From the NCBI GenBank assembly GCA_029262475.1, contig JAJCZG010000122.1, forward strand, positions 31,789-95,788: a stretch of DNA of 64,000 bases, in the 5' to 3' direction. The stretch comes from Deltaproteobacteria bacterium (GTDB lineage Bacteria; Desulfobacterota; GWC2-55-46; JAJCZF01). Each line of letters opens with the position of its first letter. Positions within the stretch are counted from its first letter, which is position 1. Of the stretch, positions 37,753 to 38,983 are shown one piece after another. A program made the position numbers and the translations under genes. The notes below the pieces were generated by a model, which saw nothing but the letters and a program-made list of their open reading frames with translations, did no database searches and was not told the origin of the DNA.

Positions 37753-38813
37753 AAAAGACCGCCATTATAGGTGTCGGAAGGGTAGCGGCACTCCTCGAAG
37801 ACGACAAGCTTCGTGAGAAACCGGCTACGCATATGGGCGCATACCTTGATTCTCCGGATTTTGAAGTCGTTGCCGCCGCTGATATCGACGCGGCGAGGCT
37901 TGCTACATTTGGAAAGCGCTACGGAATAAATAAACTCTATACCGATTATAGAGAGATGTTAAAGGAAGTAAGACCAGAGGTCGTGAGTATAGCCGCCTAC
38001 GCAACGGAACGCGCCGAGATGCTAAAGGCCGCGATACTTTCGGGCGTAAAGGGAATATGGTGCGAAAAGGCATTTGCCACATCCTTAGAGGAGGCCGACG
38101 AGATAGTAGCCCTTGCAAAAGAGCACGGGACGGTCATAACAGTATCTCATATGAGGCGCTGGAGCGCCGAACACATATTGGTCAAGGAACTCCTGGGTAG
38201 CGGAGCCATCGGGAGGCTCACTTCCATTTCAGCGTATTTCAGCGGAAGCCTCCTCCATACCGGCACTCACGCCTTCGACGTCCTCAGGTGGTTTGCCGGG
38301 GACGCATTATGGGTCGAGGGCTCGCTTGAGGGAGCCCCTGAGAGGTCAACCGAAGGCGATGAACCAGAGGAGAAAGACTTTTTGTGGTCTTTAGCTGGCG
38401 ACCCCGGCGGGCGCGCGGTTATTAGCTTCAAGGACGGTGTCTACGCCACTGTTCACGCGGAGTCTAAAAGCTATCTTCTCTTTGAATTCGACCTTATCGG
38501 CACCGAAGGCAGGATAAGGATAGGAAATAACGACGTACTTGAACTCTATACCCAGGGTGAAAGCCGCCATTACGAGGGAATAAGGGAACTGAGCCTTAGA
38601 GATTTTCCCGAGTTTAATAAAGCAAATATTTGGAGAGGTGCGGCGCGAAACCTCTCCGAGACAATCGACGGGCAGGCGACCAATATGAACCCGCCAGAGG
38701 ACGGGCGCGCGGCCCTGGAGCTGGCGCTGGCCATACATTTTTCTTCGTCTCTGGGAGGCCAAAGGGTACAACTGCCCCTTAAAGACCGATCCATTAAGGT
38801 CAACAGCAGATAA
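37749..38813 (+). CDS. Gfo/Idh/MocA-family NAD(P)-dependent oxidoreductase
   Basis: N-terminal Rossmann (KTAIIGVGRVAALLED) and a family C-terminal alpha/beta domain. The last roughly 14 codons lie inside tandem-repeat copy 1. Confidence 0.7.
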   Translation: MKKTAIIGVGRVAALLEDDKLREKPATHMGAYLDSPDFEVVAAADIDAARLATFGKRYGINKLYTDYREMLKEVRPEVVSIAAYATERAEMLKAAILSGVKGIWCEKAFATSLEEADEIVALAKEHGTVITVSHMRRWSAEHILVKELLGSGAIGRLTSISAYFSGSLLHTGTHAFDVLRWFAGDALWVEGSLEGAPERSTEGDEPEEKDFLWSLAGDPGGRAVISFKDGVYATVHAESKSYLLFEFDLIGTEGRIRIGNNDVLELYTQGESRHYEGIRELSLRDFPEFNKANIWRGAARNLSETIDGQATNMNPPEDGRAALELALAIHFSSSLGGQRVQLPLKDRSIKVNSR

Positions 38814-38983
38814 TCGAGGTTTTTATATTTAATTAATAGGTGTATGTCAGCTCCTTAAAGACCGTTTCGTCACGGTCAACAGCAAGTAATCGAGGTTTTT
38901 TTATATTTAATTAATCGTTCTATGTCTGCCCCTTAAAGACCGTTCCATTAGGGTCAACAGCAAGTATTTGAGGTTTTTATATA
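38770..38983. repeat. Tandem direct repeat, 3 copies of about 77 bp (CCTTAAAGACCG..GGTCAACAGCAAGTAATCGAGGTTTTTATATTTAATTAAT...). Copy 1 forms the 3' end of the oxidoreductase CDS; copy 3 supplies the ribosome-binding site and start of the NeuB-family synthase gene.
   Basis: Direct inspection: the CCTTAAAG anchors lie at about 38777, 38853 and 38931, with about 90% identity between the copies. Confidence 0.85.

Follow-up and report, generated by a model that had tools for sequence, protein, structure and literature searches.

A tandem repeat array at the gfo–neuB junction of a flagellin-glycosylation cluster, probably an old local duplication

Layout of the repeat array

A tandem repeat array occupies the junction between a gene for a Gfo/Idh/MocA-family oxidoreductase (gfo) and a gene for a NeuB-family nonulosonic acid synthase (neuB) in a 64,000-nucleotide (64-kb) stretch of DNA from a Deltaproteobacteria bacterium (contig JAJCZG010000122.1, positions 31,789 to 95,788). 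This whole stretch is referred to here as the window, and positions are counted from its first letter. The array extends from 38772 to 38983 and contains three in-register copies of a unit, which lie 76 and 78 nucleotides (nt) apart in a repeat search of the window. Copy 1 includes the 3' end of gfo, and copy 3 ends at the start of neuB. The two genes and the three copies are arranged as follows.

37749..38813, + strand: Gfo/Idh/MocA-family oxidoreductase gene, 354 amino acids (open reading frame list; Pfam PF01408, PF22725 and PF02894)
38772..38849, + strand: repeat copy 1, consisting of the last 42 nt of the Gfo coding sequence including the TAA stop, TCGAGGTTTTTATAT and the AT-rich linker TTAATTAATAGGTGTATGTCAG
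38850..38927, + strand: repeat copy 2, wholly intergenic and non-coding, with the linker TTAATTAATCGTTCTATGTCTG
38928..38983, + strand: repeat copy 3, partial (56 nt), a relic of the Gfo 3' end that terminates exactly at the NeuB ATG at 38984
38984..40054, + strand: NeuB-family nonulosonic acid synthase gene, 356 amino acids (Pfam PF03102 plus SAF)

The array is the sole tandem repeat in the window that lies well over the score cut-off of Tandem Repeats Finder (TRF), which assigns it a period of 78, 2.7 copies, 83% matches, 1% indels and a score of 298. The array edges used here are the TRF boundaries. The 43-nt core consensus finds two matches in the window at three or fewer mismatches, compared with 0.00 expected from 100 shuffles. 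The repeat that the initial annotation had placed across the gfo 3' end and the neuB ribosome-binding site is thus real. The copies had also been described as near-identical, a description that does not hold: any two of them are 82-86% identical and share an exact stretch of at most 15-18 nt. The head-to-tail arrangement in a constant register, with similarity beyond chance, is that of a locally derived tandem duplication. An assembly artefact is excluded because the copies have diverged from one another and because two related, independent assemblies carry homologous arrays at the same junction. A left edge of copy 1 at 38766 is not claimed, given that the extension is supported by two of six extra matches. 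The other TRF row in the window, at 34308-34354 (47 nt, score 52), is a 21-nt repeat with 2.2 copies and 76% matches inside flgL.

The repeat unit is composed of the last 42 nt of gfo with its stop codon, TCGAGG, a T-rich tract that ends in TATA and a 22-nt AT-rich linker. Each unit in the window contains the Shine-Dalgarno sequence GAGG together with the T-rich spacer. The gfo gene itself is intact. Its stop codon (TAA) is located at 38811-38813, and the C-terminus of its product (...LPLKDRSIKVNSR) agrees with those of relatives (...V-x-S-R). In copy 1, the Shine-Dalgarno-like GAGG at 38816-38819 is not followed by a start codon at a distance of 4-13 nt. Copy 2 contains a pseudo-stop TAA (38887-38889) and a decoy GAGG (38892-38895). 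In copy 3, the former stop codon has become TAT (38965-38967), and GAGG at 38970-38973 is followed by a 10-nt T/A-rich spacer that leads up to the NeuB ATG. The GAGG of copy 3 is the putative working Shine-Dalgarno of the NeuB-family gene. As the initial annotation had stated, the third copy alone adjoins this ATG, ending at 38983 directly before the start codon at 38984. The N-terminus of NeuB (MDKIVKIGDREVG...) aligns with those of its relatives, and therefore 38984 is the true start.

Copy 2 displays a local peculiarity. At 38860-38877, it differs from copies 1 and 3 by five substitutions that are clustered within 9 nt. With these substitutions, the imperfect GACC...GGTC has become a 6-bp hairpin without mismatches, GACCGT/ACGGTC (-8.7 kcal/mol). 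The change resembles a quasipalindrome-correction (template-switch) mutation.

The junction in relatives and the history of the copies

Protein searches with Gfo and NeuB yielded only two close relatives besides the source itself. One relative, L001, is a metagenome-assembled genome contig (GCA_029262495.1) with a Gfo that is 88% identical and a NeuB that is 88-89% identical to those of the window. The other, L032, is a long-read contig from ENA, with a NeuB that is 79-80% identical to that of the window. The next relatives beyond L001 and L032 exhibit identities of 64% or lower. An array is present at the gfo/neuB junction in all three genomes of this clade (3/3). L001 contains two copies with a spacing of 77 nt and 93% identity over 59 nt, and its intergenic gap is 93 nt. 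L032 contains three copies that are separated by a 77-nt step (76% identity) and then a 44-nt step (89% identity), and its gap is 137 nt. With its three copies, the window has a gfo–neuB gap of 170 nt. The linker that follows the first copy is homologous in all three genomes (TATTTAATTAATAGG, TATTTGATTAATAGG and TATAATTAATTAGT). In positions 1-310 of L032, the 3' end of gfo looks frameshifted relative to the window, with a gene call that stops at 250 and homology that runs to 309. This frameshift is likely a sequencing indel; the contig name indicates 2x long-read coverage.

In more distant relatives, the junction is tight. The gap between gfo and the following neuB ranges from -4 to +9 nt in 13 of the 15 outgroup loci. 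In 9 of those 13 tight loci, the Shine-Dalgarno sequence AGGAG is located within the last gfo codons (V-R-S-R*: GTA AGG AGC AGA TAA). The exceptions among the 15 loci, L003 and L016, have unrelated long spacers. Direct repeats at the junction are found neither in L031 (Gfo 64%) nor in L002, the two tight-junction relatives that were scanned. Because the outgroup junctions are tight and because the period and the linker are common to the clade, the array is a derived feature with a single origin, after the L031 split and before the L032 split. The source of the unit is the adjacent gfo 3' end, whose unduplicated state is seen in the relatives, as in a locally derived duplication. The initial suggestion of a junction duplication is supported by the tight gap in the outgroup loci and by the restriction of 77-nt base-period arrays to the small clade of the window. 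A comparison of copy number, which had also been proposed, shows that this number is not invariant (two in L001, three in the window and three in L032 with its 44-nt unit), although the variation occurs on the timescale of species divergence.

The copies retain traces of the order in which they arose. Copies 2 and 3 of the window both have AAG where copy 1 has AGA, and both have TATGTC at the left end. The linkers after copies 1 and 2 have an exact 18-mer in common. These common features fit a later round of duplication in the window lineage, the second one, in which the unit was a linker plus a core. The 44-nt repeat of L032 pairs CTGGAGA of the upstream copy with ATGAAGA of neuB (89%), and on this alignment the 44-nt duplication demonstrably included the neuB start codon. 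In L001, the repeat extends ungapped 9 nt into neuB, with TTTGATTAA aligned to ATGGATAAA. We infer that the original 77-nt unit took in the first neuB codons, of which the AT-rich linker would be a decayed remnant; the first 9-13 nt of the neuB gene may have been part of the unit that was originally duplicated. The homology of the 22-nt linker of the window to the neuB start is only suggestive. The five upstream copies in the three genomes have TTT, TTT, TTT, ATT and CTG at the start-codon position and ATG in none, and in-frame stop codons (TAA and TAG) follow the lost start-codon position in upstream copies.

The copies also exhibit genome-specific states. GTC is present in all three window copies, GTA in both L001 copies and GTT in the coding copy of L032, the non-coding copies of which are too diverged for comparison at this site. 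The window has GGTTTTT, compared with GGTTCTTT in L001. The two L001 copies are identical across their first 43 nt. Given the shared linker, gene conversion is the best explanation for such states that are common to paralogous copies. The constrained coding copy would serve as a gene-conversion reservoir and would thereby also explain how well the non-coding last copy is conserved between species.

The divergence of the copies indicates their age. In a comparison of the window with L001, identity is 75-87% in orthologous intergenic DNA and 59-73% at four-fold degenerate sites. The identity of the window copies (82-86%) falls in the range of this interspecies intergenic DNA, and therefore even the latest duplication is old. 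The substitutions between copy 2 and copy 1 are mostly non-synonymous in the Gfo frame, which indicates that the extra copies are under no coding constraint.

The array is probably an old junction-spanning duplication with three diverged copies, a tolerated relic that has at most a modest effect on expression and does not operate as a switch. Its history would begin with a tandem duplication of ~77 nt across the gfo/neuB junction in the ancestor that the window genome shares with L001 and L032, after the L031 split. The duplicated stretch would have comprised 42-48 nt from the end of gfo, a 16-nt spacer containing the Shine-Dalgarno of neuB and, probably, a few codons from the start of neuB. 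Because this segment straddled the junction, both genes would have remained intact and the surplus would have become an intercistronic spacer. A 78-nt unit would later have been duplicated again in the window lineage, which would make copies 2 and 3 sisters, and L032 would have independently duplicated its 44-nt sub-unit. The extra copies would then have decayed as non-coding DNA with loss of the decoy starts, partially homogenized by gene conversion with the coding copy. Through these events, a tightly coupled ancestral junction, with stop and start at a distance of 0-9 nt and the Shine-Dalgarno inside the last gfo codons, would have turned into an untranslated spacer of 93-170 nt. In the window, the GAGG of the synthase gene is located 10 nt upstream of the ATG, and the upstream GAGG repeats have no start codon within 4-13 nt. 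It is most probable from this layout that translational coupling was lost and that the synthase gene has its own, independent initiation at the GAGG in the last copy. The upstream GAGG motifs would lead nowhere, and their quantitative effect on the synthase may be modest.

Several observations weigh against this history. The clade is represented by three genomes only (the window, L001 and L032). When the linker of the 77-nt unit is anchored against the neuB start, 4-6 of 9 positions match, and a free-end alignment of the two is no better than shuffles; this shuffle test is not significant because short AT-rich strings align too easily. The non-coding last copy has three differences between the window and L001 in its 37-nt core, a conservation above the neutral expectation that gene conversion from the coding copy can explain. 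Bacteria are prone to delete useless DNA, and tandem repeats are easily deleted. The array nonetheless persists in each of the three lineages sampled and has undergone two expansions, a hint that it is tolerated or beneficial. Given this retention, a small amount of room is left for a selected tuning role.

Setting in the flagellar region

The window covers a flagellar region in which all long open reading frames are on the + strand. The genes are ordered as flgK, flgL, fliW, a glycosylation cluster of ~20 kb, and two flagellin genes and fliD. A csrA gene is expected between flgL and fliW from synteny with L001. The glycosylation cluster starts with pseB and pseC (both over the NCBIfam cut-offs), gfo, the NeuB-family synthase gene, a cytidylyltransferase gene and a gene for a weak PseG-like protein. 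The NeuB-family synthase scores under both the NeuB and the PseI equivalog cut-offs of NCBIfam. The rest of the cluster (41833-55549) encodes two methyltransferases, a sulfotransferase, two adjacent B12-binding radical-SAM enzymes, a split transketolase, an SDR, an ATP-grasp (L-amino-acid-ligase-like) enzyme, a GH57-like protein and a Maf/MptE-like protein. This ~20-kb cluster is a flagellin-glycosylation cluster, and the array is located in its interior.

Other features of the region were observed alongside the array. The tailoring genes at 41833-55549 and the below-cut-off synthase hint at a heavily modified, uncharacterised nonulosonic acid. The two flagellin paralogues are located at 56429-57256 and 60371-61216, with fliD (57763-59106) between them, and their 3' ends (57044-57259 and 61004-61219) have 73% DNA identity. 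The 83-nt spacer between the cytidylyltransferase and PseG-like genes (40860-40942) is 87% identical to that of L001 and 79% identical to that of L032, and it is more conserved than the four-fold sites of the flanking genes (55-73%). With a GAGG...CCTC inverted repeat and an A-rich tract inside it, the spacer may be a conserved regulatory element.

The position of the array in the cluster bears on the possibility that it marks an island boundary, as had been suggested initially. The suggestion is not supported: the array is located in the middle of a syntenic pseB-pseC-gfo-neuB-cytidylyltransferase block. Furthermore, G+C content ranges from 0.50 to 0.56 without a step, no tRNA gene is present in the window and the array has no mobile-element match. 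A related explanation regards the extra copies as gfo 3'-end remnants that were left by successive cassette replacements at an island or cassette boundary or at a site-specific recombination site. Polysaccharide and glycosylation loci are known mosaics, and every extra copy does start as a gene 3' end. However, close as well as distant relatives retain the gene order on either side of the array, and the head-to-tail 77-nt register is strict and common to the three genomes. The differences between the copies are not biased to synonymous positions, which indicates that the copies were not functional genes while they diverged. The search for an integrase, a tRNA gene or an inverted-repeat core found none, and nothing matched in the plasmid and phage collections. 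A cassette origin is thus so improbable as to be nearly negligible.

The transcription of the junction is likely to start well upstream of the array. A candidate promoter precedes the first gene of the cluster.

35439..35452, + strand: sigma-54-type promoter (GGCAC-N5-TTGC), cGGCACactccTTGCAt, identified in a pattern scan, upstream of pseB

This promoter is kept in L001, as seen in an alignment of the intergenic region. Given the place of this promoter before pseB and its conservation in the nearest relative, gfo and neuB most likely share a transcript, and the promoter at 35439 likely drives the operon that contains the array. The fliW-pseB intergenic region (35385-35543) also contains a 7-bp GC-rich hairpin, CTCCGGC/GCCGGAG (35392-35411), directly after fliW. 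The promoter and the hairpin suggest that the glycosylation operon is a sigma-54 transcript of the flagellar regulon.

Alternatively, the repeat units could carry one or more internal promoters, from which neuB and the genes after it would be transcribed without dependence on the sigma-54 promoter before pseB. The linkers are AT-rich with TATA-like hexamers, and copy 1 contains TCAACA and TATATT separated by 18 nt, a 9/12 match to the sigma-70 consensus. This match is single and weak, compared with 1.9 matches expected by chance in the scanned region. The spacing of the hexamers changes to 20 nt in copy 2 of the window and in L001 and to 19 nt in L032, and a plus-strand scan of the L001 and L032 arrays finds nothing. 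No promoter is conserved across the arrays of the window, L001 and L032. Nor does the unit contain the CCGATA -10 element that is present in the sigma-28 sites of this genome. Internal promoters in the array are accordingly considered very unlikely.

A sigma-28 promoter in the unit was considered because TAAAG occurs at the unit starts, and this candidate was rejected on the same missing CCGATA element of the sigma-28-type sites. Elsewhere in the window, the sigma-28-type pattern TAAA-N15-GCCGATAT has three full matches, at 37641-37666 (+), 31050 (+) and 44055 (-), where ~0.1 is estimated by chance. The match at 37641 is located within pseC, where it falls on the codons for a conserved motif (..SLPIYP..), and is kept in L001. 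Because it coincides with the codons of this motif, it may reflect a coincidence of coding rather than an internal promoter for gfo and neuB.

Search for a dedicated element and comparison with known systems

The array was examined for elements that could give it a function of its own, and no indication of such an element emerged. The predicted RNA folds of single units and of the whole array are no better than those of shuffles (z from -0.26 to +0.38), and the consensus fold of the three genomes is weak (-2.5 kcal/mol), without compensatory pairs or covariation. A 7-bp pairing between UCCAUUA and UAAUGGA of the start region is possible in the window, but it is imperfect in L001 and missing in L032. 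Rfam returns no match to the array at E values up to 1, and no terminator-like site is present in the array. The initial annotation had also proposed a search for copies elsewhere. None is detected in the window at three or fewer mismatches, in metagenome and viral collections searched with degenerate core patterns or in plasmid and phage collections searched by blastn. CsrA binding was considered because of csrA and fliW upstream, and it was rejected: the copies of the window and L001 contain no GGA motif (only AGGT and GGGT), and the single GGA motif is found in one L032 copy. The open reading frames of the spacer are limited to two mini-ORFs of four codons (ATG-TCx-GCx-CCT-TAA) at 38845-38859 and 38923-38937, which touch neither the gfo stop nor the neuB start and are missing from L001 and L032.

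The layout of the array invites a comparison with the mycobacterial interspersed repetitive unit (MIRU) class of variable-number tandem repeats (VNTRs), in particular with the senX3-regX3 locus of Mycobacterium tuberculosis. MIRUs form a dispersed family at dozens of loci. Supply et al. in 1997 reportedly described MIRU units of 77 and 53 bp, with small ORFs that overlap the flanking stop and start codons. As in senX3-regX3, the array consists of repeats with units of tens of bases (~77 nt), arranged head to tail between two genes of the same operon, here on the same strand in a conserved pseB-pseC-gfo-neuB block after a sigma-54 promoter. The last unit provides the ribosome-binding site of the downstream gene, and the copy number varies between lineages. 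The array differs from MIRUs in that it was born locally from the flanking gene ends, with no other copy in the window or the searched collections, and in that it contains no ORFs that bridge the stop to the start. The MIRU-VNTR class is the closest known analogue in layout. MIRUs have been proposed to function in mRNA stabilization and in the control of downstream translation (PMC7884335).

By this analogy, the array could be a selected intercistronic regulatory spacer, in which the repeats tune synthase translation or the stability of an mRNA segment and the copy number sets the level. Such a spacer would act by offering decoy or standby ribosome-binding sites and by uncoupling the synthase gene from gfo, or through the stability of the upstream and downstream mRNA segments. 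The array is kept in all three clade genomes with two independent expansions, the GAGG/GGGG motif and the T-rich tract are kept in every copy, and every decoy ATG has been removed. The conservation of the non-coding last copy beyond the neutral baseline and the possible UCCAUUA/UAAUGGA pairing in the window are also consistent with a regulatory spacer. Conversely, RNA structure is neither significant nor conserved, with the UCCAUUA pairing weakened in L001 and absent in L032, and the copies lack the stop-to-start bridging ORFs of MIRUs. The conservation is explicable by gene conversion from the coding copy, and the extra copies differ considerably in sequence and length among the three genomes. 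On balance, a selected regulatory spacer is unlikely. A more specific version, in which a locally born and recurrently expanding repeat is maintained by selection as a translational uncoupler or tuner, that is, a MIRU-like device born de novo at a gene junction, is improbable. In this version, the start-less decoy Shine-Dalgarno sites would serve as a ribosome standby or sponge, with the copy number setting synthase output relative to the upstream enzymes.

The functional proposal in the initial annotation was a phase- or dose-variable spacer. Such a contingency locus would switch or grade the downstream flagellin-glycosylation genes through copy-number changes within a population, brought about by frequent slippage or recombination. 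Campylobacter flagellar glycosylation islands are known to hold phase-variable genes. The array resembles these loci in that it is a repeat in a flagellin-glycosylation cluster just before a start codon, and its copy number and structure vary among three related genomes. Contingency loci, however, have short perfect units (1-7 nt, rarely longer) that change the reading frame or the promoter spacing at high frequency. The array units are 76-78 nt long and 14-18% diverged (82-86% identical), with exact identity over at most 15-18 nt, which makes them a poor substrate for frequent slippage. The sister copies 2 and 3 have diverged to the same extent as interspecies orthologous intergenic DNA, which makes the last change an ancient one. 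The array falls outside the two reading frames and is not located between promoter elements; it contains no recognisable promoter, no conserved promoter with a spacing that could be altered and no homopolymer or short-unit tract. The evidence speaks against the proposal, and a contingency locus is extremely unlikely.

The array instead conforms to an ordinary tandem duplication that arises by replication slippage or illegitimate recombination and then decays. It is arranged head to tail with a fixed 77-nt unit in three genomes, the flanking genes are intact because the unit straddles the junction, and the copies exhibit progressive decay and gene conversion. Nothing essential differs from such a duplication. 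The array is unusual in its age, its retention in all three sampled lineages and the two additional duplication rounds, independent of each other, that followed. The most fitting classification is an ordinary tandem duplication of local origin that stands out only for its age, retention and repeated re-expansion.

As a plain duplication, the gfo–neuB junction would provide a natural example of how a tightly coupled operon junction turns into a long untranslated spacer through a straddling duplication. It would also exemplify how such a duplication ages, with the loss of decoy starts, gene conversion against the coding copy and further duplications. For annotators, the array is a caution that relics of gene ends, as well as decoy ribosome-binding sites, can lead to wrong calls of start codons and pseudogenes. 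The array would bear on the regulation of flagellin glycosylation only if its copy number does tune the expression of the synthase.

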